From NCBI GenBank assembly GCA_963668625.2, contig CAXXKA010000008.1, positions 928,001 through 992,000 of the forward strand: 64,000 bases of DNA, given 5' to 3'. Positions 9,904 to 22,956 of the stretch are shown piece after piece; positions within the stretch are counted from its first letter, which is position 1; each line of letters starts with the position of its first letter. The DNA comes from an uncultured candidate division Zixibacteria bacterium. Its GTDB lineage: Bacteria > Zixibacteria > MSB-5A5 > UBA10806 > 4484-95. The notes below the pieces were generated by a model. It was given only the letters and a program-made list of their open reading frames with translations, ran no database searches and was not told where the DNA came from. The position numbers were made by a program, and so were the translations under genes.

Positions 9904-10145
9904 TAGTTTGTCGTAGGGGTGTATCGCATACGCCTTTTTATTTGATCCTAAAAAATACCGGTTTAGCCGGCATGTCCTTTTCCTTTTACAACACTAAACT
10001 CTATTTGACGGTGGTGTCAGGAATCCATTCCTGACACCTGATTTCATGCGGCATATCGCCGGGAAAGGATAAACAAAGGACTTCGCCCGCCCAGCGACTC
10101 ATGCAAATGGCTTTTTCAACAACCCCGGAGGATGTAATCCAGTAT

Positions 10146-10265
10146 GTCCTTTTCTTTTTATAACACTAAACTCTATTTCTCTTTAGTTAGCTTATGTGGA
10201 GGGGAGACAAAACGAAGTTTCTAGAATACGGCGGGTTACAAAATCGGAGTTTTGTAACCAGTACA
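10146..10265. repeat. 120-bp dispersed intergenic repeat, copy 1 (partial copy at 9958-10006)
   Basis: Closely similar to 14470-14589; ends in the palindrome GGTTACAAAA-TCGGAG-TTTTGTAACC. Confidence 0.85.
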
Positions 10266-11322: not shown

Positions 11323-11856
11323 ATGAAATTTTCGACTCGCGCAAGATACGGTTTACGAATGATGGTGGAACTGGCCAGACTTTTAGAAAAAGAGCGCCTG
11401 GTTCGTCTCGGGCGAATAGCTAAAATCACCGGGCTTTCGGAAAATTACCTGGCGCAATTGGCGATCTCCCTAAAAAACAGCGGTTTATTAATCGGCATAT
11501 CCGGTAAAAAAGGCGGCTATCAACTGGCAAAACCGGCCAGGGAGATAAAAATCGGTGAGATAGTGCAGGCGGTTGCCGGGCCTCTCACCGCTACCGATTG
11601 CGTGAACCACCCGGAAACCTGCCTCAATGCCAGTTTTTGCGAGGCCCGAGTGCTCTGGGTACTGATAACCCATAGTATCGAAAATATTCTGGATGATTAC
11701 AGCCTGGCCGATCTCATAAGCCACAATTGGCTGGAAAGTGTCAGACAACAACATCCCGGCCTGGCGATGCTGAACCCGGATATCTTGATTAAAGATGAAA
11801 ATAGTGAAACCTTACCGGGCTGCCCGGTGAGTTCTAATAATCGAGAGGAGAAATAA
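11323..11856 (+). CDS. Rrf2 family (IscR-like) transcriptional regulator
   Basis: MKFSTRARYGLR, YLAQL, G.KGGYQLAKP, and three Cys (DCVNHPETCLNASFC) that could ligate an Fe-S cluster. Confidence 0.93.
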   Translation: MKFSTRARYGLRMMVELARLLEKERLVRLGRIAKITGLSENYLAQLAISLKNSGLLIGISGKKGGYQLAKPAREIKIGEIVQAVAGPLTATDCVNHPETCLNASFCEARVLWVLITHSIENILDDYSLADLISHNWLESVRQQHPGLAMLNPDILIKDENSETLPGCPVSSNNREEK

Positions 11857-11858
11857 AA

Positions 11859-12776
11859 ATGATGGTTATCCAGATGGTGACCTATATCTCCCTGATAATT
11901 GCCGTAGTCGCGATGATTGTCAAGGCGATGAGGTATGCCAACGCACCCGAGCACCTGAGATGGGAACTCTATCCTGTACCGCATGAAGGTGACCGAGCCG
12001 AATACGGTGGTTCATATCTCGAGGAGCTTGACTGGTGGACAAAAAAGCGTCACGCGGATCATTTCAAAGAGATTAAAGAGATGATGGCCGAGATCATTTT
12101 TTTGAAAGGCGTATTTAATAACAACAAACGTGTCTGGACATCCTCGTTTCCTTTCCATTTCGGATTATACCTCTGTATAGGCTGGTTGGTGATGCTTCTT
12201 GGAGGCGCTATCGCGGAGAAATTAGGTGTAGAGATTTCAGCGAATGCCGGTGCAATAGGGATTATCATCCATTACCTGACTATCATTGCCGGTTATCTCG
12301 GCCTGGTTTTGGCCGGACTGGGAGCGTTCGGGCTATTTATCTGGAGAGCAACCGACCCCAAGCAGAAACCGTATAATTCACCGGCCGAGTATTTTAATTT
12401 AATCGTGTTCGATATAGTAGTCGTCGTTACCTTAATAGCCCAGCTTACCGGCGATTTCGGTTTCGAGACCTTGCGTGCTTATGTCGGCTCGCTCGTAACG
12501 TTCTCTCCGGCGCCGGCGCTATCGGGTTGGATGGTTGCCGAGATCGTCGTCGTCTCGTTAATAATCATGTACATTCCTCTCACCAGGATGTCGCATTTTG
12601 TTGCGAAATACTTCCTCTATCATGCCGTACGCTGGAACGATGAGCCGAACCCGAAAGGCAGCGCGATCGAGAAGCGTATCGCCGAGCTTCTGCAGCAAAA
12701 AGTCGGCTGGAAAGCCTCACACATGTCCACGGGTAAGTCCTGGGTTGAGGTGGTAAAGGAGACTGACAATGAGTAA
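11859..12776 (+). CDS. NarI/DsrM/HmcE-like membrane b-type cytochrome subunit
   Basis: LRWELYPVPHE, SFPFHFGLY and PLTRMSHF motifs; 5-6 TM helices; overlaps the downstream Fe-S gene. Confidence 0.8.
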   Translation: MMVIQMVTYISLIIAVVAMIVKAMRYANAPEHLRWELYPVPHEGDRAEYGGSYLEELDWWTKKRHADHFKEIKEMMAEIIFLKGVFNNNKRVWTSSFPFHFGLYLCIGWLVMLLGGAIAEKLGVEISANAGAIGIIIHYLTIIAGYLGLVLAGLGAFGLFIWRATDPKQKPYNSPAEYFNLIVFDIVVVVTLIAQLTGDFGFETLRAYVGSLVTFSPAPALSGWMVAEIVVVSLIIMYIPLTRMSHFVAKYFLYHAVRWNDEPNPKGSAIEKRIAELLQQKVGWKASHMSTGKSWVEVVKETDNE

Positions 12777-14379
12777 ACAGATTAAAGTTAAAGATATCAG
12801 TATCAAAGGCAAACAGCTTGTCGAAATAGATAAACACAGGCTGCCCAAATTACCCTATCCGTACGAGGATTGGGTCGAAGCCGATATCCCGCAGATTTCC
12901 GAGGAGAAGCGCAAGCAGGTGGATGTTTCCCTCGACGGTATTTTGAACCCGGCTATTCCAATTCCTGAAACCGAGGAGCAAAAGCAGAAACTGGTCGCAG
13001 ATTTTCTCGAGGGCTTGAAAAACTTATTGAGCCAGGAAAACAACTGGACATTCTTGAAACCTTTGATGCTTTCGCTGGATAACTGCGTTAAATGCAATAC
13101 CTGCAGTGATGCTTGCCCGATATTCAAAGAGAGCGGCGAGATCGAGGTTTACCGACCGCTTTTCCGCTCGGATGTCCTTCGCCGTATTATCCGTAAATAT
13201 ATCAAACCCGGTGGCAAATTAACCGCGGCATTCTCGGGCAATAATATCGATTTGAACTGGGAGACTATATCCCGATTAGCGCAGCTTTCGTATCGCTGTA
13301 CGCTTTGCCGTAGATGCGCCCAAACCTGCCCGATGGGGGTCGATAACGGCCTGTTGACCCGTGAAATCAGGAAGCTGTTCTCTCAGCAGTTAGGGATTTA
13401 CCCGGCCGAGCTTCATAAAGAAGGCACGATCAAACAGCTCCAGACGGGATCATCCACCGGCATAAATACCGCCGCCTTCCTGGATATTGTCGAGTTCATG
13501 GAGGAGGATATAACCGATAGAACCGGACTGAATATCAAGATACCCGTCGATAAACCGGATGCCGATATTCTGCTGGTACATAACGCCGGCGAGTTTTTAT
13601 CCTGGCCGGAAAATGTCGAGGCGTTCGCTATCATATTCGAGGCCGCCGGTTTAAGTTGGACATTAACCAGCCAGGAGGTCGGATACGACTCGGTCAACTA
13701 CGGCTTATTCTACGATGACGCCCAGCTTGCTAAGGTAACCTTAAAACATGCTGAATCAGCCAAGAAACTCAACGCCAAGAAAGTGGTAGTTGGAGAGTGC
13801 GGCCATGCCCATAAAGCCATGATGGCTATCGGCGATAGAATCTGGCTGGCCGAATCGAATACCCCGCGTGAGTCGAGCCTTGTGCTACTCGATCATATCG
13901 TATCCAAGGGTATGATAAAGCTCGATCCTGAGAAGAATAATTTCCCGGTTACCCTTCACGATCCCTGCAACGTTACTCGTTCGATGGGTATTATCGAACC
14001 CCAGCGTCGCGTTATCCGTAAAATCTGCCCGCAGTTCCGGGAGATGACACCGCATGGTGTGAAAAACTATTGCTGCGGCGGCGGTTCGGGATTTGCGATC
14101 ATGCAGAGTAACAATTTCCCTAGTTGGCGCAACGCTATCGCCGGTAGACGGAAATTCGCCCAGATACTAAACGCATTTACCAAAGAGGAGCTCGAACCGT
14201 CAGTCAACAAATATGTCTGCGCGCCGTGCTCCAACTGCAAAGGTCAGATCAGGGATTTGATCACTCACTATGACGCTTACGAGAAGATCCGCCTTCTGTA
14301 TGGAGGCCTGGTAGAGCTGATAGTAAACGCCATGCCTGAGGTAAACAAGGAATTCATCGAGTGGGATGATTTCCATTAG
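12769..14379 (+). CDS. DsrK/HmcF/HdrD-like Fe-S oxidoreductase with CCG domain
   Basis: Two CxxCxxCxxxC motifs, plus GECGH, LHDPC, YCCGGGSG and PCSNC. Confidence 0.88.
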   Translation: MSKQIKVKDISIKGKQLVEIDKHRLPKLPYPYEDWVEADIPQISEEKRKQVDVSLDGILNPAIPIPETEEQKQKLVADFLEGLKNLLSQENNWTFLKPLMLSLDNCVKCNTCSDACPIFKESGEIEVYRPLFRSDVLRRIIRKYIKPGGKLTAAFSGNNIDLNWETISRLAQLSYRCTLCRRCAQTCPMGVDNGLLTREIRKLFSQQLGIYPAELHKEGTIKQLQTGSSTGINTAAFLDIVEFMEEDITDRTGLNIKIPVDKPDADILLVHNAGEFLSWPENVEAFAIIFEAAGLSWTLTSQEVGYDSVNYGLFYDDAQLAKVTLKHAESAKKLNAKKVVVGECGHAHKAMMAIGDRIWLAESNTPRESSLVLLDHIVSKGMIKLDPEKNNFPVTLHDPCNVTRSMGIIEPQRRVIRKICPQFREMTPHGVKNYCCGGGSGFAIMQSNNFPSWRNAIAGRRKFAQILNAFTKEELEPSVNKYVCAPCSNCKGQIRDLITHYDAYEKIRLLYGGLVELIVNAMPEVNKEFIEWDDFH

Positions 14380-14408
14380 AGATATAGATATTACAAACAT
14401 GATTCTTT

Positions 14409-14438
14409 TAAAGCCCGGTGTAAGTCGGGCTTTTTTGT
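14409..14438 (+). terminator. Rho-independent terminator
   Basis: AAGCCCG-GTGTAAGT-CGGGCTT followed by a T run after the Fe-S gene. Confidence 0.75.
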
Positions 14439-14469
14439 TTATCCTAAAAACCATCGGTTTAGCCGATAC

Positions 14470-14589
14470 GTCCTTTTCTTTTTATAACACTAAACTCTAT
14501 TTCTATTTAGTTAGCTTATATATAGGGGAAACAGAACGAAGTTTTTAAAATACGGTTGGTTACAAAATCGGAGTTTTGTAACCAGTACA
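14470..14589. repeat. 120-bp dispersed intergenic repeat, copy 2
   Basis: Closely similar to 10146-10265, in the same orientation. Confidence 0.85.
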
Positions 14590-14754
14590 CCCCTTGCCAA
14601 CCCCTGGATCCTGAATCAAGTTCAGGCTGACATAGCCAGCTTAGGCCGACTGGGTAAAAGTCACCGGTCCTGTGGCCGGAAATAGTTTACTGCGAGGTTC
14701 GGTTCTTTCCTGATTCATGAATTTCAATAACGAAGTTTAATGATTTATCCAATC

Positions 14755-14787
14755 AAAAATAAGGCAGGAGCATGCCGCTCCTGCCTT
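14755..14787 (-). terminator. Rho-independent terminator closing the peptidase-peptide operon
   Basis: Perfect stem AAGGCAGGAGC/GCTCCTGCCTT followed on the minus strand by ATTTTT. Confidence 0.8.
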
Positions 14788-14801
14788 TCGCTGAAAACTA
14801 G

Positions 14802-14960
14802 TTACTCATCGAGCAAATCCCCGGCATCATCCGAGAAAAGACTACACATTCTGGGACGCCCACCGGAACCATCGCACCAGATAGCCGACTGCCCTCCGGC
14901 GCCATCCATAACCGTATATGAATTACCGCCTACGGAATCATGAAAGAGTCTAGCGAACAT
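14802..14960 (-). CDS. 52-aa repeat peptide 3 (putative RiPP-like precursor): MFARLFHDSVGGNSYTVMDGAGGQSAIWCDGSGGRPRMCSLFSDDAGDLLDE
   Basis: GGGAGG RBS before ATG 14960; three 11-aa DxxGG units; shared C-terminal DAGDLLDE. Confidence 0.85.
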   Translation of the reverse strand: MFARLFHDSVGGNSYTVMDGAGGQSAIWCDGSGGRPRMCSLFSDDAGDLLDE

Positions 14961-15083
14961 ATCGTCCTCCCTGTTAAGATTTTTTGTGATAAGAAACTCC
15001 ACTGCCTGTGATTGATAATTTGTTAGCGAAATTTCCAGTTAAAAGAGCAACAGCAACGTATCTCGATAGATTGCCGATTGGAG

Positions 15084-15209
15084 TTACTCATCGAGCATGT
15101 CGCCGATATCCTCGACCGGCGAATTACCATACAACGAATGACCGCCTTTATAATCAGCGACGACCAGTTGAGGAACATTACCGTTATCCGCAACGATCCA
15201 ATTGTACAT
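15084..15209 (-). CDS. 41-aa peptide 2 (absent from the ORF track): MYNWIVADNGNVPQLVVADYKGGHSLYGNSPVEDIGDMLDE
   Basis: AAGGAAGG RBS; two 'VAD' units 11 aa apart; C-terminal DIGDMLDE matches both neighbours. Confidence 0.8.
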   Translation of the reverse strand: MYNWIVADNGNVPQLVVADYKGGHSLYGNSPVEDIGDMLDE

Positions 15210-15259
15210 CCGTACCTTCCTTGTTAAAATTCATACTTCATCTAACAAGACGATGATTA

Positions 15260-15298
15260 GCTCCCAGGCGGAGGAGTCAATCCCCCACCTGAGAAAGC
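15260..15298 (-). promoter_or_regulatory. Intergenic RNA stem-loop after peptide 1
   Basis: On the minus-strand RNA, CAGGUGGGGGA pairs fully with UCCUCCGCCUG using two G.U pairs; on the plus strand those positions are A-C mismatches. Confidence 0.55.
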
Positions 15299-15305
15299 GC
15301 TACTG

Positions 15306-15629
15306 CTATTCAGCCAGCACATCACCGATATCGGATGACGGTAAGGAACCGGCCTTAGCTCCACCTCCCGAGCCATCGCTCATGATACGAGGTCTGCCAC
15401 CTGAGCCATCGAGATAAATCAGTGGCCTGCCGCCAGCTCCGTCACAACAGACATAAGGCCGGCCGCCTGAGCCATCAAGCTCGATGTAGGGTCGTCCACC
15501 CGCGCCATCAGACATGATGTAGGGTCGTCCGCCTGAGCCATCAGACATGATGTAGGGTTGTCCACCCGCACCATCACTCATGATAAAAGGCTGCCCCCCG
15601 GCACCATCCATCCAAATTCTTCCATACAT
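15306..15629 (-). CDS. 107-aa tandem-repeat peptide 1 (eight DG[AS]GG units; putative multi-core RiPP-like precursor)
   Basis: AAGGAGG RBS before ATG 15629; 33-nt period with synonymous codon variation; C-terminal DIGDVLAE. Confidence 0.9.
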   Translation of the reverse strand: MYGRIWMDGAGGQPFIMSDGAGGQPYIMSDGSGGRPYIMSDGAGGRPYIELDGSGGRPYVCCDGAGGRPLIYLDGSGGRPRIMSDGSGGGAKAGSLPSSDIGDVLAE

Positions 15630-15712
15630 TTTCTTCCTCCTTTTGAAAGAAATTTGAAATATTGCTAATTCGGTGGAAAGTATTGATCCCACCGTTTCGA
15701 GAACTAATTCGA

Positions 15713-18619
15713 TCAAACCATACTGATTTTTTCCATTGGTTTGACATTGATCGATTTGACTTCATCGATCAACTCCGCCGGTCCGAGAATTTTCAGAACA
15801 TCACTTACTGCCAATGATTTCATGACATCCGCGAATTTCGTGAAATCACTCGCTTTAGTATGCAAAATTTGCTCGAATACCGCCGTCCTGTCGGCAGAAT
15901 CGATACCGGCCAGGTAATGCGCCAGCGCTTGATGGCCACGAGCATCGGGAGATTTATAGCTTTGGAACTTTCGCACGGCCCCGATTATACAGGATGTAAG
16001 TTCATCCCGGCTTATTTCAAACGAGGATAGATATTCACCGGCGCTGTTTATCGCCTCGATCGTTTTAGTAAGATTCAAATCGCGGTTGGAAACTATGGTG
16101 AAAACATCACTGGTGTGATCATAGTCGCAATAAGATTCGTACGCGCCGCCGGTTACCCTGATTTTATCCCAGAACCATGTTGTCCAGAGATGGTTGCTGA
16201 CAACGTACGCGGCGCCTTTCGATTCGAAACCTGAGCGACCAATATCAATACCCTTACCAGCAATGCCTGTCTGGGATGGTATAACGAAGCCCTCGGTTTC
16301 CGGCAACGGATCGAACTCATGGGGGTGATAGACTGGTTCGTTTTCAGGCAACTGATAGCTTAATGACAGCAGTTGATCTCTTATATTATCCCAAACCGGA
16401 CGCGAGCATGTAACATTCACTATCATCGTTTTACGGTTGATGAGTATTTGCTTTATCCGATCGAAAATCGCTATGGTTCTTTCGGGAGTTTTCTCGAATT
16501 CATTCAGCAGATTTTTAAGAAAACGTATATAGTCGATTCCGGTCAAACATTCGGACATCCTGCCGGCCTCGTTAAAGTGCGCATTAAGCCGATAACGAAT
16601 AAACTTGAAACCGTGCTCCGAATAAAGCATGGATTCGTGTCGTCTTAACTCATCACTGGTTATATCGTACAACTCCGAAGGGTTATGAATATCCGAATCC
16701 AGGATCAGCTTTTTGAATGAATCTATTAAAGCCCCAGTATTATTGAGAATCGCTTTCCCCGGAAACAGCACCAGTGAGGAGCTAGTCGACTTGTCTTTAT
16801 TCGAGATATTGAAAAATCCGGTACGCACTCCGCCGGTTTCGTTGTTGATCGTTTCATTCAGATTATCCCCGCCAAGCTGAAGCATTGCCCGGGCGATTAA
16901 CCTCGAATACCGCACGAACTCTACCGGCAGGGCGCGCAGATCAAAGCCAAGCGTGATATAAGCGGTACCGCTGGTGTGAATATCATTGAACAGTACACGA
17001 AGGCCGTTGAGGTTTACAATATCCTGATTGATGATATCAGGAGCCATTTCGATATCGGAAACTCGCAGGCGGGGTATCATATTCCGGTCGAAACCGGCTT
17101 TTCTTAACCTAATCGAATCATCCAATCGTGCCGGTGATTTATAGATATCATCCAGTTGCTCCGGGGTTAACGATTCCCGAATACGTTCGAGCTGCGAACG
17201 TTCCAACCCTGATTCCCTGTCGAGCAAGCCGGGATCGGGCCTGAAAACCGCGACCGACCTGTGATTGTTGTTCAGCAGGCATTTTTCGATCAGTCGTTCG
17301 AAATAGTTATCATCGTTTTTAACCAGTTGCTCTATTTCCTGGAGCGGTTGTTCAAAACCAATTTTATCGAATATATCTTTTTCGTAGCACCAGGCTGAAA
17401 GAGCTCTGAGCATTAGTTGAATTCCTGCCGGAGTCTTGCCGAAATTATTCTCTCTGATAAGAAACTGTAATCGGTTAAGCGCCGCTTTTTTCAGCTTTCG
17501 ATCTATGCCTCTCGAGACGATTCGCTCCAAAGCATTGAGAACCGAGGATTCGGCCTTAGCGAGGTCGGCTTGCGCTACACCTTTTAAGCCGGTCGAAAAA
17601 TACGGCTGTCGTAAATCCTGGAATAAACCCACTCCTGCTGTGGTATGGCCGTACACCGATTCTAAAAGTGCGATTCTCAATGGCGAGGAGTTGAGCCCCA
17701 TGAGAATAGTCTCGAACATCATGTTGACTAATGTGGTTTTAAAATCAGGCTTATCGTTTAACACCCAATTTAATGTAACTATATTTTCATCCCGGTTCCC
17801 TTCATTTTGCCGGGATGGAAACGTGTATTCAGCCCTGGCGGGTTTTATGAACGGTTGTTGGCGCTGGACGGATATAGCGTAATCGACGGTATCAAAATCC
17901 TTGAGAAAACTATTTATTCGTTCGAGGTAATTATCCGGTTCGATATCGCCATAAAGAAAAATAAAGCTGTTGGATGGATGATAATGCTTTTTATGATATT
18001 TCAATAAGTCTTCGTAACGTAAATATGGTATTTGCTCGGGAAGCCCCCCTGGTGTATTGGAATAGGGGCTTTGGGGGAATAATGATTTCCTTATATTCTC
18101 AGTGATTCGCGATGAAGCCGAGGAGAAATGGCCTTTCATTTCGCTATATACTATTCCTTTATAAACCAGTTTATCGGGCCGGCCGTTACTTTCCAATCTC
18201 CAACCTTCCAGCGCGAAATTCTCCGGCGAAAGTGTGGGGAAGAAAACCGCATCCAGCATGAGTTCCATGCAGTTGGAATAATCTTTCTTGTTGGGTGTAG
18301 ATGCCAGATAACATGTCGTATCAAGGTAGGTATAGGCATTCAGGTAGTTTTGAAGCGATCCCTTCAGCAACTCGACGAAAACATCTTTGACGGGATATTT
18401 TCTGGAACCGCAGAAAACCATATGCTCCAGAATATGCTGTATACCCGTGGAATTCTCCGGGGGAGTTCGAAGGGCTATTCCAATGGTTTTGTTTACATCA
18501 CTATTTTTAAGCGAAAATACAGTGGCGGATGTTTTCTTGTGCTTAAAAAGCTTGCAGACTGCGTTAAACTCCGGTATCTGCTGTTTTTGAACCAGCTCGA
18601 AATCGGTAATATCTGGCAC
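15713..18619 (-). CDS. M16C insulinase-family metallopeptidase (presequence protease PreP-like), cytoplasmic
   Basis: STGIQHILEHMVFCGSRKYPVKD (HxxEH), LNAYTY, GIVYSEMKG and IRVTGGAY; GTG start after GGAGG; no signal peptide. Confidence 0.93.
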   Translation of the reverse strand: MPDITDFELVQKQQIPEFNAVCKLFKHKKTSATVFSLKNSDVNKTIGIALRTPPENSTGIQHILEHMVFCGSRKYPVKDVFVELLKGSLQNYLNAYTYLDTTCYLASTPNKKDYSNCMELMLDAVFFPTLSPENFALEGWRLESNGRPDKLVYKGIVYSEMKGHFSSASSRITENIRKSLFPQSPYSNTPGGLPEQIPYLRYEDLLKYHKKHYHPSNSFIFLYGDIEPDNYLERINSFLKDFDTVDYAISVQRQQPFIKPARAEYTFPSRQNEGNRDENIVTLNWVLNDKPDFKTTLVNMMFETILMGLNSSPLRIALLESVYGHTTAGVGLFQDLRQPYFSTGLKGVAQADLAKAESSVLNALERIVSRGIDRKLKKAALNRLQFLIRENNFGKTPAGIQLMLRALSAWCYEKDIFDKIGFEQPLQEIEQLVKNDDNYFERLIEKCLLNNNHRSVAVFRPDPGLLDRESGLERSQLERIRESLTPEQLDDIYKSPARLDDSIRLRKAGFDRNMIPRLRVSDIEMAPDIINQDIVNLNGLRVLFNDIHTSGTAYITLGFDLRALPVEFVRYSRLIARAMLQLGGDNLNETINNETGGVRTGFFNISNKDKSTSSSLVLFPGKAILNNTGALIDSFKKLILDSDIHNPSELYDITSDELRRHESMLYSEHGFKFIRYRLNAHFNEAGRMSECLTGIDYIRFLKNLLNEFEKTPERTIAIFDRIKQILINRKTMIVNVTCSRPVWDNIRDQLLSLSYQLPENEPVYHPHEFDPLPETEGFVIPSQTGIAGKGIDIGRSGFESKGAAYVVSNHLWTTWFWDKIRVTGGAYESYCDYDHTSDVFTIVSNRDLNLTKTIEAINSAGEYLSSFEISRDELTSCIIGAVRKFQSYKSPDARGHQALAHYLAGIDSADRTAVFEQILHTKASDFTKFADVMKSLAVSDVLKILGPAELIDEVKSINVKPMEKISMV

Positions 18620-19268
18620 ACATACCTCCGTAGGCTAGCGGTTTTAAGCTATATCTCATCTCTGGCGGTGTAGATGCCGGCGGTAATAATAGCCGGAATT
18701 TCCTGAAATTACTTTACGGTAATCTCGTAATATGAGGCGGTTTTCATCAGGATATACTAATATTGTGGGATGCCGGTACTATAGTCATCTCTGGAGAAAA
18801 TACTTAAATACCTTACTGCATTAATCAATCCTGGATGGATATCGTTTCAAATCCAGCGGCTTGCTTATTGATTAAATAAACGGATTTGATGTTCCCCACT
18901 ACACAGTATTTCTTTATCTTTGGCTTAATTTTACGAAGAAGTTTTAGCTTAGTTTCATAATTTTTTGTAATATTATGAATACATCATCTTGATAGTAAGT
19001 TTATTGTAAAATCACTGGTGTCCGGTTTTTTCATACTCGATCATGATTTACATTCAGCATATTGCAACAAATATGCGGATTACTTCGTTCGGCTCGTAAT
19101 GATTGACCTTATACGGTTTTTCAACAATCCCGGCGTTTCGGAACCAGGGATTGGAACCTGTATTTACAGATGGCTGTTGAAATAGAATTAGCTGTTGAAA
19201 TATCGAATGCAAAATATTAAATTAATCCAGAAATAGCGTGGAGATGTCTATCTCAAACTTGGAGACTT

Positions 19269-19967
19269 ATGAGCGCCGAAATCAGAGCTGTCATTTTCGA
19301 TATCGATGATACCCTGTACGATAGAAAAAAAGCACAGGCGATAGTTTTTGAGCAGTTCAAGCATCAATATACCGAGCTGTTCGACTCCATTGATATCCAC
19401 ATGCTCACCACCGCCTATTATGAGGCCGACAGACTTTCCGGCGAATATTTCTACGCCAGCGGAAAGGGTGAAAGGCATCGACAGAATAGATTCGGTCTTT
19501 TTCTGGATATGCTGGAGTTGGATAATGAATATGTCGGGGAGATGGCAAAGTTCTATATAGAACAATATAGCAAGGTCAACACCCCGATGGCAGGCGCGGT
19601 GGAGGTAGTTAAAGCGTTACGTGATAAATACAAGCTTGGCGTAATCACCAATGGTCTTTCCGAAACGCAGAGAAATAAACTGGATGCAATAGGTTTGACC
19701 TCATTGTTCGATAGTATCGTGATTTCGGATGAGTCCGAGTACAAAAAACCCGAGCCCAATATATTTTGGGAATCAGCCGGCAAACTCGCTTGTAAATCCG
19801 AGCAGTGCATCTATATCGGTAATTCGTATAATGGCGATATCATCGGCGCCGCCGGAGCTGGTATGAAATCCTGTTGGTATAATCCCTCTAAAAATAGGCC
19901 AATGCATATGCCGGTTATGCCGGATCATGAAATTTCGAAATTGGCGGAGCTACATGGTTTCCTTTAG
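19269..19967 (+). CDS. HAD superfamily hydrolase (YjjG-like)
   Basis: FDIDDTL, ITNG, KPEPNIF and IGNS..GDI motifs. Confidence 0.9.
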   Translation: MSAEIRAVIFDIDDTLYDRKKAQAIVFEQFKHQYTELFDSIDIHMLTTAYYEADRLSGEYFYASGKGERHRQNRFGLFLDMLELDNEYVGEMAKFYIEQYSKVNTPMAGAVEVVKALRDKYKLGVITNGLSETQRNKLDAIGLTSLFDSIVISDESEYKKPEPNIFWESAGKLACKSEQCIYIGNSYNGDIIGAAGAGMKSCWYNPSKNRPMHMPVMPDHEISKLAELHGFL

Positions 19968-19978
19968 ATGTTAATCTC

Positions 19979-20977
19979 ATGAATATATTTGATTGGTTAA
20001 AACAGAATATCGATTTTCAGGAATGCGATTCGACCGCTTTGATGTACGATTACATGGAATCGCAATCGAACGAATTATTGCCTATTATTTATCAGCCTTT
20101 CGATATCGATAACCTCTCACACTGGCGTGACCGGGGATATATACTCGATTTCCATTATTCCGTCGGCGAGGGTAATATCCTGGATTTCGGTCCGGGGGAT
20201 GGCTGGCCTTCGCTGATGATAGCTCCGTTCACCAATCGTATAACCGGTGTTGAGGCCTCGAATACGCGAGTGGAGGTTTGCAGAATAAATGCGGCCCGGC
20301 TCGGTATTCAAAACGTCGAGTTCGTGCATGTTAAACCCGGGGATAAGCTGCCATTCGAGAATAACTTTTTCGATGGCATCACCGCTGCCTCATCCATAGA
20401 GCAAACTCCCGATCCATTCGCGACATTAAGCGAGCTATATAGGGTGTTGAAACCGGGTGGTAAGCTCAGGATGTACTATGAGTCGCTTGCTGGATATCGG
20501 GATGGCCGGGAAAAGGAAATGGTCAGTTGGCAAACGAAAGATAGCAAGTTCAGGATAGATATCTACAACAGGATTATTGACAGGGAAGAAACGGAGATAT
20601 ACTCCCTGGAATTCGATTTACTATCGGATGATATAACAACGCTGTTCAGAGATACAACCGATGCAGAAGATATTCCCGATGATTTGCTTAAAAAGTTGAA
20701 TAATATTACCAGGTCTATTGATAATCCATGCAAAGCCAGGCTGGTACAACCGGATTGCCGGACATGGCTGGAATGGATGGGAAAGATCGGTTTCAGTGGA
20801 TGTTTGCCCACCCGCAACGGCGGTATACTGGCGGAGTTGATGTTCAATACATATAAAGGGGAGAATCGACCGACGAACCTCGATCAACTCGATGAACTTC
20901 TTATACCTTTTATCGCTGAGATAATTAAAATAAAAGAACCTGTATTATCCAACCCTATGATTACCGCAATTAAATAA
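19979..20977 (+). CDS. Class I SAM-dependent methyltransferase
   Basis: ILDFGPGDG, LPFENNFFD and ELYRVLKPGG motifs. Confidence 0.85.
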   Translation: MNIFDWLKQNIDFQECDSTALMYDYMESQSNELLPIIYQPFDIDNLSHWRDRGYILDFHYSVGEGNILDFGPGDGWPSLMIAPFTNRITGVEASNTRVEVCRINAARLGIQNVEFVHVKPGDKLPFENNFFDGITAASSIEQTPDPFATLSELYRVLKPGGKLRMYYESLAGYRDGREKEMVSWQTKDSKFRIDIYNRIIDREETEIYSLEFDLLSDDITTLFRDTTDAEDIPDDLLKKLNNITRSIDNPCKARLVQPDCRTWLEWMGKIGFSGCLPTRNGGILAELMFNTYKGENRPTNLDQLDELLIPFIAEIIKIKEPVLSNPMITAIK

Positions 20978-20979
20978 AC

Positions 20980-22956
20980 CTAACGAAATACCTTATTAAA
21001 AACAGGGTGATCGGGAATGTTTTCACAGGGTGGCCAACCCTCGGGCATCTCGTCCGGTACTTCGTTTCCGTTCGACCATTGCGGCGGAATCATGGGACAA
21101 TAGTCAAGCCCGATAAAGCCTCGGAAATACGACACCAGCCGGCTGACATCCGAACCGAGTACCCGGCAGTCTCCGGTAACATCCCCCGAACCCCAGGCGC
21201 CGTTTATAGAACAGGGTTTGCAAGCTTCTATAACGCTGAGATAATTTACGATATACGTAACATCATTGCCGATTCGTCGTGGCGGCCAGGCGCCGTAATA
21301 CATGTTGGCGTCCCCCAGCAAGAACGGATAGCCCAAAAAGCGAAGCTCGATATCAACTTGCGCGGTATCCCCGGCCAGAGCCTCTATCTCCGAAATGATA
21401 GTGTCGGCGTAGTTTATATGATAGAACGAAAGCTCATAATTGCCGGCATCCAGGCTATCGAAACTGAATTCGCCGTAGAAATCGGAGGTGTCGGTGCGCG
21501 ACGGATTGCTCAGGTCGACTACAATGTTTTCGAGAAATGCCCCGGAGGAGTCGGTCAGAACTCCGGTAATAAACGTAGGATAATGCATGACCATGAACAA
21601 CTGGGTAGTGCTGTCGGAGGCAATATGTATATCGGCTAACGTCGTATCGTTATAGTACTCATCTATGAAACTGATCTCGAAATCACCCAGATCAAGAGAG
21701 TCCATATGGAAATTGCCTTCCTCATCGGTGAAAGCCCGGTGAGAGGTGCCGCCCACGGAAACCCTTATATCCTCCAGTGGCATCATGTTATCATCCACCA
21801 CCGCTCCGGCCAACTTTCCCGGATACCTGAGTATCACATTCTGCATTACCTCGATATCATCAAGCTGAACCTCGACATTCTGAATGATCGTGTCGGCATA
21901 GTAATAGTGACGGTAGCGAATATTATAGCTGCCACTACTGAGGCACCCGATTTGATACTCACTGTTTGCATCCGAGCGTGTACTGAAAGGAGCGTTGGTA
22001 GTATTGATATAAGTAGTGCTAACCGTTTCGCCTAATGGGCCGGTTATAGTTCCGCTTACATAAGGAAGATAATCACAGAGATCGTATATCACCGGCTCTA
22101 CACCGGCGTTGACCTCCAACAGCTCATGATCGTGTACGGTGATCCAGTCCTCCTGCTGCTGCGTGGGAAATCTTGAGGCGATCGCCGTAAATGAATATGA
22201 GGGATCGGTGTAGTAGTACAGGGTTCTATCCAGGCGGTAGGACCATATGGTATTACCATCGCTGAGTATGAAATTTAAAGCCTCATCATAACTGCGAACG
22301 TTTATTTGCCTGAGCGCCTCGATTATACCCTCGACCACGTTCCAGTCATGCTCCTCTATATTTTTCAGGAGAAGAAGGAAATACAGCTCCGAATCGATAA
22401 CGAGATCGGAATCGGCCGGATCGCATTCGGCGATACCTGAGCCGGTTAGCGGATTTTCTATCAAATAATGTTGTCCTACGAGTTCGTATAAAAGTGGTTT
22501 GCTGGCGGTACCGTTATGAATAAAAGTCCAGGTGCGATTGTCCTTTTCTCTTATAAACGGGTGCGGATCCGGAATGCTATCGCTGCCGTGGGCACAGCAA
22601 CCGGCGGAGCAATTTCTGACATGGCCTAAAATGATATTAGGGGCGGTCCTCTCCAGGCCGGCTATGATCACGTCATATTGGATATCGTTAATCGCTCGTA
22701 TCGCTCCCCTGTCGATAATCGCCGTATCCCCGAATGACTGATAACTAGCTATACCCCAGCCATCTATATTAGCGGATTCGGAAAGCCGTTCGAGTGAATA
22801 AGGGTAGTCAACGTAATAATCCTGTATGAGTCCCCGGGGCATATCCGCGGAAATTATTCCCGTTATCCGGCAATTATGAGGTTCCTCATTCTCCTGCCCG
22901 TAAACTATGGGTATAGAAATAAATATCGTAAACAATAACGTGATTATCAGTTTCAT
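20980..22956 (-). CDS. Secreted class II glutamine amidotransferase-like (Ntn) protein with carboxypeptidase-regulatory-like Ig repeats and a C-terminal dockerin-like domain
   Basis: Signal peptide, then CR.., DGWG, GHVR, PHPF, FIHNG, DSE and LNF motifs of GATase-4 type; three Ig-like repeats; GDANM..WPP..DVTY tail. Confidence 0.8.
   Translation of the reverse strand: MKLIITLLFTIFISIPIVYGQENEEPHNCRITGIISADMPRGLIQDYYVDYPYSLERLSESANIDGWGIASYQSFGDTAIIDRGAIRAINDIQYDVIIAGLERTAPNIILGHVRNCSAGCCAHGSDSIPDPHPFIREKDNRTWTFIHNGTASKPLLYELVGQHYLIENPLTGSGIAECDPADSDLVIDSELYFLLLLKNIEEHDWNVVEGIIEALRQINVRSYDEALNFILSDGNTIWSYRLDRTLYYYTDPSYSFTAIASRFPTQQQEDWITVHDHELLEVNAGVEPVIYDLCDYLPYVSGTITGPLGETVSTTYINTTNAPFSTRSDANSEYQIGCLSSGSYNIRYRHYYYADTIIQNVEVQLDDIEVMQNVILRYPGKLAGAVVDDNMMPLEDIRVSVGGTSHRAFTDEEGNFHMDSLDLGDFEISFIDEYYNDTTLADIHIASDSTTQLFMVMHYPTFITGVLTDSSGAFLENIVVDLSNPSRTDTSDFYGEFSFDSLDAGNYELSFYHINYADTIISEIEALAGDTAQVDIELRFLGYPFLLGDANMYYGAWPPRRIGNDVTYIVNYLSVIEACKPCSINGAWGSGDVTGDCRVLGSDVSRLVSYFRGFIGLDYCPMIPPQWSNGNEVPDEMPEGWPPCENIPDHPVFNKVFR

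Follow-up and report, generated by a model that had tools for sequence, protein, structure and literature searches.

We analyzed a 64,000-nucleotide (nt) stretch of DNA from an uncultured candidate division Zixibacteria bacterium (contig CAXXKA010000008.1, positions 928,001 to 992,000 of the forward strand; hereafter the window), in which a divergent zinc peptidase of the M16C (PreP) type is encoded directly upstream of three short peptides that appear to form a new family. The initial annotation of this region had described 4 minus-strand genes, each with its own ribosome-binding site (RBS), closed by a single strong terminator. All of these elements are present, and the 4 open reading frames (ORFs) are co-oriented, the peptidase of 968 amino acids (aa) coming first and the peptides of 107, 41, and 52 aa following it. 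The features of the unit, with the evidence for each, are as follows:

15713..18619, minus strand: zinc peptidase of 968 aa, a divergent M16C (PreP-type) member that starts with GTG (Pfam, alignment to AtPreP1, RBS)
15306..15629, minus strand: 107-aa peptide with a MYGRI start, eight DG[AS]GG units, and the tail DIGDVLAE (ORF, RBS, codon-position variation)
15084..15209, minus strand: 41-aa peptide, a shortened member with degenerate units and the tail DIGDMLDE (ORF, RBS, profile match)
14802..14960, minus strand: 52-aa peptide, the canonical form, with three units and the tail DAGDLLDE (ORF, RBS, end-to-end homologues)
14761..14787, minus strand: intrinsic terminator closing the four-gene unit (12-pair stem with 7 G-C pairs, T run)

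A Shine-Dalgarno-like GGAGG lies 5 nt upstream of the peptidase GTG, and the ORFs of the 107-, 41-, and 52-aa peptides are preceded by AGGAGG, AAGGAAGG, and AGGGAGGA, respectively. The structure at 14787-14761 is the only strong minus-strand terminator, none being internal to the four-gene unit. Nothing in Rfam matched within 14000-21500. The cassette was found assembled in sequencing runs of one study, and a wetland metagenome from a second study contributed 4 short pieces of approximately 99% identity, 3 of them inside the cassette and 1 about 2.5 kb upstream.

Pfam analysis of the peptidase returned PF00675 (residues 53-136), PF05193 (201-382), PF08367 (460-704), and PF22516 (776-938), with E-values from 7e-12 to 1.5e-32; all four matches exceed the cut-offs and make up the complete M16C architecture in a single chain. 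The best match of solved structure is Arabidopsis AtPreP1 (PDB 2fge; E 9.4e-186 over residues 6-953). The zinc motif HILEH (H62-I-L-E65-H66) and the distal glutamate E160, located in YSEMKG, align to their AtPreP1 counterparts and are invariant across a 27-sequence alignment, while the R821/Y827 pair of domain 4 corresponds by alignment to R848/Y854 of AtPreP1 and is invariant in the M16C alignment. By all of these sequence-level features the protein is a member of M16C, and they predict that the active site of this divergent enzyme is intact. No Sec-type signal peptide was apparent at its N-terminus, which was read by eye and not with a predictor.

A search of 5.8 billion protein clusters identified P0002, also of 968 aa, as the closest relative of the peptidase, with 53% identity, compared with 36-39% for the other M16C proteins among the matches listed. 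In a FastTree phylogeny of the 120 best M16C sequences, these two proteins group together with support 100, and the stem leading to them measures 0.87 substitutions per site; the median path between the other members of the tree is 1.03. We then counted the alignment columns that are at least 90% conserved among the other 118 M16C sequences: 116 of 376 such columns are altered in both the peptidase and P0002, including G828E beside the catalytic Tyr, a position occupied by Gly in 98% of other M16C sequences. These results place the peptidase in a two-member clade far from mainstream bacterial M16C, a point on which the initial annotation is supported. To see whether chamber charge might have shifted to suit acidic substrates, an idea that we did not retain, the acidic pocket of human PreP was mapped by hand from the alignment: D212, D377, and D716 corresponded to S167, G329, and E668, respectively, and a neighboring Glu to S169, but two of these hand-mapped positions look no different in the alignment of mainstream bacterial M16C.

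The three peptides share a common register, consisting of D-x-x-G-G, 10 residues, and then the tail, and a DNA pattern combining unit and tail matched 2 sites in the window versus none in 100 shuffles. Among the eight DG[AS]GG codon sets of the 107-aa ORF, the mean pairwise difference was 0.11 at the first codon position, 0.00 at the second, and 0.64 at the third, and this concentration of variation at the third position points to protein-level selection in this frame. A 251-nt contig from the wetland metagenome covers the start of this gene and differs from it at 15544 and 15570; by hand translation one difference is synonymous (G20) and the other gives S29Y, although a sequencing error is possible in this single contig of depth 2.7. 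The initial annotation had attributed 11-residue units and a shared tail to all three peptides. The tail is indeed present in all of them and the units are found in the 107-aa form, where the period is 11 aa (33 nt), and in the 52-aa form, but the 41-aa peptide carries degenerate units only (DNGNV, DYKGG) and no clear 11-mers. The 52-aa form aligns with the N-terminal 36 and the C-terminal 16 residues of the 107-aa form, which corresponds to the 52-aa form plus five additional 11-residue units, and the 41-aa peptide matches the family profile described below with an E-value of 1.2e-16 (50.2 bits in the search of its own genome). The three peptides are paralogues.

Neither Pfam nor NCBIfam has a model that matched the peptides, and with E-values allowed up to 1 no Pfam repeat family was found; when the 107-aa peptide served alone as the query, not one of 4,176 candidates reached an E-value of 10 or less. 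We therefore used a profile built from the three window peptides to search 1.84 billion representative proteins, and found 11 further proteins of 51-53 aa that match end to end (E 1.5e-14 to 1.4e-4), along with the two short peptides of the window. Full-length homologues at other loci are 39-58% identical. The family alignment comprises 13 sequences, and per-position counts were taken from the 12 full-length members. The family starts with M-[YF]-G-R-[IL], continues with three 11-residue units that each open with an invariant Asp (D8, D19, D30) and usually read D-G-x-G-G-x-P-x-[IV]-x-x, and ends with D-D-[IV]-G-D-[IV]-L-D-E. In the numbering of P0121 the invariant residues are M1, D8, D19, D30, D45, G47, D48, L50, and D51, whereas the stretches that separate these anchors are hypervariable (5-9 residue types among the 12 sequences), with frequent Cys and aromatic residues. 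Basic residues are found at position 4 (R/K, 12/12) and at position 37 (R/K, alignment column 38, in 11 of the 12 full-length members), exactly 33 residues, or three units, apart. Contiguous conservation extends over no more than 5 residues at the start and 8 at the end, the remainder being periodic, and all 13 aligned members are acidic (isoelectric point 4.05-4.51). These results indicate that the small ORFs are, as judged by their coding signature and homologues, genuine genes of a new peptide family, whose typical member is 52 aa long with three degenerate units; the 107-aa form is an expansion and not the archetype.

Several other assignments of the peptides were considered and set aside. 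An RTX or beta-roll relationship (nonapeptide GGxGxDxUx) was rejected since the period is 11 aa and not 9. The weak profile matches P0127, P0133, P0134, P0136-P0139, and P0141-P0143 were rejected as family members, being unrelated repeat proteins, two of which carry type IX secretion sorting domains. One of these weak matches, P0134 (68 aa), has four exact 11-residue repeats, SDSCGGLHFIV, that resemble the unit SDGAGGRPYIM and lack the family termini; it could be either a fragment of a relative or a coincidence. AlphaFold, run on the peptide alignment, gave no confident fold (mean predicted local distance difference test score, pLDDT, 49.7).

To locate the family, we used a profile search that reports contigs, which returned 12 members: the two short peptides of the window, seven peptides each placed on a single ENA contig of 9,204 bp, and three (P0123, P0130, P0132) each placed on a single Logan contig of 1,032 bp. 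A further member, P0125, came from the search of 1.84 billion proteins only and is not among these 12. P0002, the closest relative of the peptidase, is likewise on a single ENA contig of 9,204 bp, and the equal source and size suggest that the seven peptides and P0002 lie on one and the same contig. In public protein sets the family was thus found at three loci. By this reasoning the linkage of peptides to an M16C peptidase recurs in both of the two loci that are long enough to judge, the third being too short, which speaks against the possibility, raised at the outset, that the peptides are never linked to M16C in other genomes, and for the proposal that peptidase and peptides form a dedicated unit. 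Three members on a contig of 1,032 bp indicate that arrays are typical of the family. Identity within loci is similar to that between loci (mean 0.44 versus 0.43), suggesting that the arrays are old or fast-diverging. No family peptide was found beside a mainstream M16C gene: one search gave 2,186 M16C matches, against these peptide loci only. Together, these results suggest that the peptides are exclusive to this M16C clade in the data searched.

The peptidase is the only M16C member in its own genome, where PF08367 matches once and five other matches are weak and confined to query residues 30-285, in the N-terminal half. As the sole M16C it is not a paralogue of a housekeeping PreP, and the second copy that had been envisaged was not found. 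The initial annotation had also regarded a sole orthologous PreP as evidence against its proposal. The enzyme is alone in the literal sense, but its gene appears accessory and acquired and is not a conserved housekeeping orthologue. No close relative was detected among 40 relatives ranging from genus to class (E 1e-20), and the M16C linker domain is present in 5 of 285 genomes of the phylum, the one other strong case among them being a mainstream-type enzyme with 36% identity. Elsewhere in the phylum (284 genomes) the peptide profile had no match, and in the genome of the window it matched this locus alone.

Searches at the DNA level and in other databases gave a similar picture. The strict unit-plus-tail pattern had no match in species-representative genomes, and its single match in JGI metagenome contigs was rejected as chance because of in-frame stops. 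A looser two-unit pattern matched at least 116 stretches, and six-frame hmmsearch found no family member at any of the 117 pattern-hit loci (L009-L125), where the best score was 17.3 bits versus 53.6-154.8 for the window genes used as a positive control. Viral contigs gave 396 pattern matches, none of them confirmed. These scans are no proof of absence, because the strict pattern fits only about one in three known members, and the family may be less rare than it appears, given that short ORFs are often uncalled. Plasmids yielded nothing for the peptide and, for M16C, a best match of 27% identity; the ESM Atlas had no usable match, and with a limit of E 0.01 neither the peptidase nor any of the three peptides was recognized by PADLOC. 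In the literature, supplements not being covered, neither the peptide family nor an M16C peptidase with linked peptides was found to be described.

The boundaries of the cassette were examined by comparison with related genomes. Two flanking features are relevant here:

18620..19268, no strand: AT-rich intergenic region, 649 bp, between the peptidase and the divergent HAD gene (sequence)
14467..14697, no strand: copy of an approximately 225-bp dispersed repeat that borders the cassette downstream (35 own-genome matches; end of synteny)

The two congeners have no DNA match to 14.4-21.1 kb of the window, and synteny with one of the genomes compared (G002) stops at approximately 14393, just past the convergent DsrK-like gene. 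The dispersed repeat lies where the congener synteny ends; its 35 matches in the same genome show 74-93% identity, further pieces occur at approximately 9945-10006 and 10143-10265, and at the repeat Logan contigs break and depth rises sharply. It may be an element resembling a miniature inverted-repeat transposable element. On the other side, a promoter is presumably located in 18620..19268, where promoter-like sites showed weak consensus only and no excess over shuffle expectation. In the congener G001 the orthologue of the HAD gene, which encodes a protein of the YjjG-like nucleotidase type scoring under equivalog cut-offs, is directly beside a homologue of a 658-aa gene (20980-22956), with neither the methyltransferase nor the peptidase between them, and about 12 genomes of the phylum that have no such peptides carry full-length homologues of the methyltransferase (40-48% identity). 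The HAD and methyltransferase genes were therefore rejected as parts of the system, as both occur elsewhere without the cassette. Since the neighbors are independent of the cassette and the cassette is absent from the congeners, the module would consist of the peptidase and peptides alone, approximately 4 kb, and we take it to be a rare, self-contained, accessory, and horizontally acquired cassette. As the initial annotation had stated, no gene for a radical S-adenosylmethionine (SAM) enzyme, YcaO, LanM, or an exporter lies adjacent to it, and no immunity gene or modifying enzyme is linked to it.

The genes around the cassette have features of their own. The methyltransferase (19979-20977, plus strand) is a 332-aa class I SAM-dependent protein with an unassigned C-terminal extension of about 160 aa; it is absent from both congeners, and its methyltransferase domain has a weak PADLOC match to mad2 (E 6.6e-16). 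The 658-aa protein (20980-22956, minus strand) is an unusual fusion in which several CarboxypepD_reg repeats accompany a domain of the class II glutamine amidotransferase-like (EgtC-like) type. At 11323-14379 on the plus strand, an Rrf2-family regulator precedes two further genes, one for a DsrM-like membrane protein resembling the gamma subunit of nitrate reductase and the next for a DsrK-like Fe-S/CCG protein, whose DsrK match (345 bits) is under the equivalog cut-off of 400, and the DsrM/DsrK-like pair is conserved in the congeners.

The combined results from these analyses make a dedicated enzyme-substrate relation between the peptidase and the linked peptides likely. More specifically, we consider the chances to be about even that the cassette is a two-component module in which the dedicated M16C peptidase would process a co-transcribed tandem array of acidic repeat peptides of about 52 residues. 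We infer that the peptidase cleaves the peptides, at positions suggested by their conserved elements, and that the products and not the intact peptides are the functional species; maturation, in which defined cuts free the variable segments, seems somewhat more likely than simple clearance. The peptidase would enclose a whole peptide in its clam-shell chamber, recognizing the free acidic C-terminal GD[IV]LDE, the N-terminal MYGR, and the periodic Asp-Gly-x-Gly-Gly turns. Hydrolysis at defined sites would free short fragments bearing the hypervariable segments, with the Asp-Gly-x-Gly-Gly elements and the two basic residues 33 apart as candidate recognition or cleavage points. Passages of a recent review describe human PreP as taking substrates of up to 65 residues and binding substrate C-termini through salt bridges in a basic pocket (PMC12731061). 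Within the family, 12 of 14 members are 51-53 aa, below the 65-residue limit of human PreP, and this length is in keeping with entire peptides being captured in the chamber, as are the two conserved termini and the free, acidic C-terminal end. Complex prediction with the peptidase and the last 30 residues of the 52-aa peptide gave scores of 0.02, 0.57, and 0.02, which speak neither for nor against binding.

Several observations weigh against processing by a dedicated M16C peptidase. Canonical PreP prefers hydrophobic, positively charged peptides, according to sections of PMC8983764, whereas this family is acidic, and the 107-aa member is above the 65-residue limit given for human PreP. With no exporter, immunity, or modifying gene linked to it, the cassette offers no route by which a product could be modified or leave the cell. 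The conservation is periodic and spread along the peptide instead of being divided into a contiguous leader and core, which would also fit a small folded or ligand-binding protein. Finally, the placement of the seven peptides and P0002 on one contig follows from equal source and size and not from DNA, and only two loci can be judged.

A narrower version of the processing model treats the cassette as a minimal ribosomal-peptide system of a novel type, in which the M16C peptidase alone would turn libraries of hypervariable 52-residue precursors into signal or antimicrobial peptides by docking the acidic C-terminus and cutting at fixed positions, R/K4 and R/K37 being candidate cut sites. We regard this version as tentative and rather doubtful. 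Macrocyclization of the putative 11-mer cores, an earlier suggestion, is unlikely on the grounds of general enzymology: zinc metallopeptidases hydrolyze through activated water, without an acyl-enzyme intermediate.

Among the alternatives, the one that best survives holds that the intact small acidic peptides are functional, for example in metal binding, as structural components, or as toxins, and that the M16C peptidase is a turnover, detoxification, or immunity enzyme that degrades them fully. We consider this explanation unlikely, even though peptides held strictly to 51-53 aa, with an invariant Asp recurring every 11 residues and conservation at both ends, resemble a scaffold and not a leader plus core, and no export or modification genes are linked. 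PreP-type enzymes are described as degrading free peptides in parts of PMC12731061, and Table 2 of that review contains an accessory M16 peptidase, HrrP, that degrades specific peptides. Two results oppose it. The lack of a confident AlphaFold fold is weak evidence, but the diversified arrays, with 3 to at least 7 paralogues that are as dissimilar within loci as between them, are more typical of libraries of precursors or payloads.

A true pathway for a peptide made on the ribosome and modified after translation (RiPP), with modifying enzymes and an exporter encoded elsewhere, either in the remaining approximately 4 kb of the 9,204-bp contig or at an unlinked site, would reduce the M16C peptidase to a leader or follower protease. 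The M16 proteases PqqF, AlbE/AlbF, and PttP1/PttP2 serve RiPP or cofactor pathways, as parts of PMC12731061 and PMC10885120 describe, and unclustered RiPP proteases are documented in PMC8960859; the frequent Cys and aromatic residues at variable positions would also be in keeping with modification. However, the acquired segment carries the peptidase and peptides only, a resident partner enzyme is unlikely because neither the peptide family nor a close relative of the peptidase was found in the other genomes of the phylum searched (0/284 and 0/40, respectively), and the neighboring HAD and methyltransferase genes occur without the cassette. A RiPP requires a modification enzyme acting on the core, and the neighbors of the cassette are a YjjG-like HAD protein, a methyltransferase, and a DsrK-like protein; with no modification enzyme in the cassette, the system cannot be filed as a RiPP. 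We judge this pathway to be improbable.

Slightly less probable still is adjacency without a functional link, in which the M16C peptidase would be a general oligopeptidase and the small genes an unrelated, co-transferred family. The small number of judgeable loci, two, leaves room for it, but the family and the divergent enzyme clade were met only together, the four genes are co-oriented with one terminator, and an enzyme that had simply kept a general role would not be expected to have changed at 116 of 376 otherwise conserved positions. The idea that the small ORFs are not genes but a non-coding repeat array downstream of the peptidase, which the lack of homologues of the 107-aa ORF in the single-sequence search might have favored, is effectively refuted by the variation at third codon positions, the RBS before each ORF, and the full-length protein homologues elsewhere.

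Bacterial M16C proteins are widespread, as the 2,186 matches in one search illustrate, and Table 2 of the 2025 review (PMC12731061) names no physiological substrate for any prokaryote that it assigns to M16C alone. Here the genome itself supplies candidate substrates, so that the specificity of a bacterial PreP-type cage is directly testable with three short peptides. If maturation is true, M16C would join the proteases of ribosomal peptide products, together with a new precursor family of very simple genetic requirement; if degradation is true, the cassette would represent a new kind of peptide paired with its dedicated degrader.

The proposed module resembles several known systems in part. 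With PreP (AtPreP1, PDB 2fge; human PITRM1; MEROPS M16C) it shares the four-domain single chain, HILEH, the distal Glu, the R/Y pair, and the type of chamber that accepts free peptides some tens of residues long. PreP, however, breaks down a mixed set of targeting peptides that are basic and hydrophobic, and no substrate is genetically linked to it in the portions of PMC12731061 and PMC8983764 that describe it, whereas the window enzyme, an accessory protein of a bacterium, is paired with a specific family of acidic peptides and differs at 116 of 376 conserved bacterial M16C positions. PqqF and PqqA also combine an M16 chamber peptidase with a small, genetically linked ribosomal peptide (parts of PMC12731061), but PqqF is an M16A enzyme, and its partner PqqA, a single peptide of about 25 aa, undergoes cross-linking by other enzymes of the Pqq set. 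Identity with PqqF was rejected, the NCBIfam PqqF model TIGR02110 scoring 14.8 bits versus a cut-off of 320 and the cassette having no pqqBCDE-like genes. AlbE/AlbF of subtilosin and PttP1/PttP2 of class III lanthipeptides are M16 peptidases that mature ribosomal peptide products (parts of PMC10885120 and PMC12731061), although they are M16B heterodimers of about 400 aa per subunit and act after a modifying enzyme (the radical SAM enzyme AlbA or LanKC). An M16B heterodimer was likewise rejected, as the window enzyme is a single 968-aa chain with the M16C linker domain and no modifying enzyme is linked to it.

The organization of the peptides resembles that of cyanobactin precursors of the PatE type, in which short conserved motifs alternate with hypervariable cassettes and several paralogous precursors can occur per locus; the expansion of unit copy number in the 107-aa member of the window is a further likeness. 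The subtilisin-like PatA and PatG of cyanobactin clusters form acyl-enzymes and can macrocyclize, and these clusters also hold a heterocyclase and other genes; none of them is present in the window cassette. HrrP, an M16A peptidase from an accessory plasmid of Sinorhizobium that degrades NCR peptides (Table 2 of PMC12731061), is likewise an accessory, horizontally mobile M16 enzyme directed at a defined class of small peptides. Its substrates are encoded by the host, whereas the candidate substrates of the window peptidase are encoded in the same operon.

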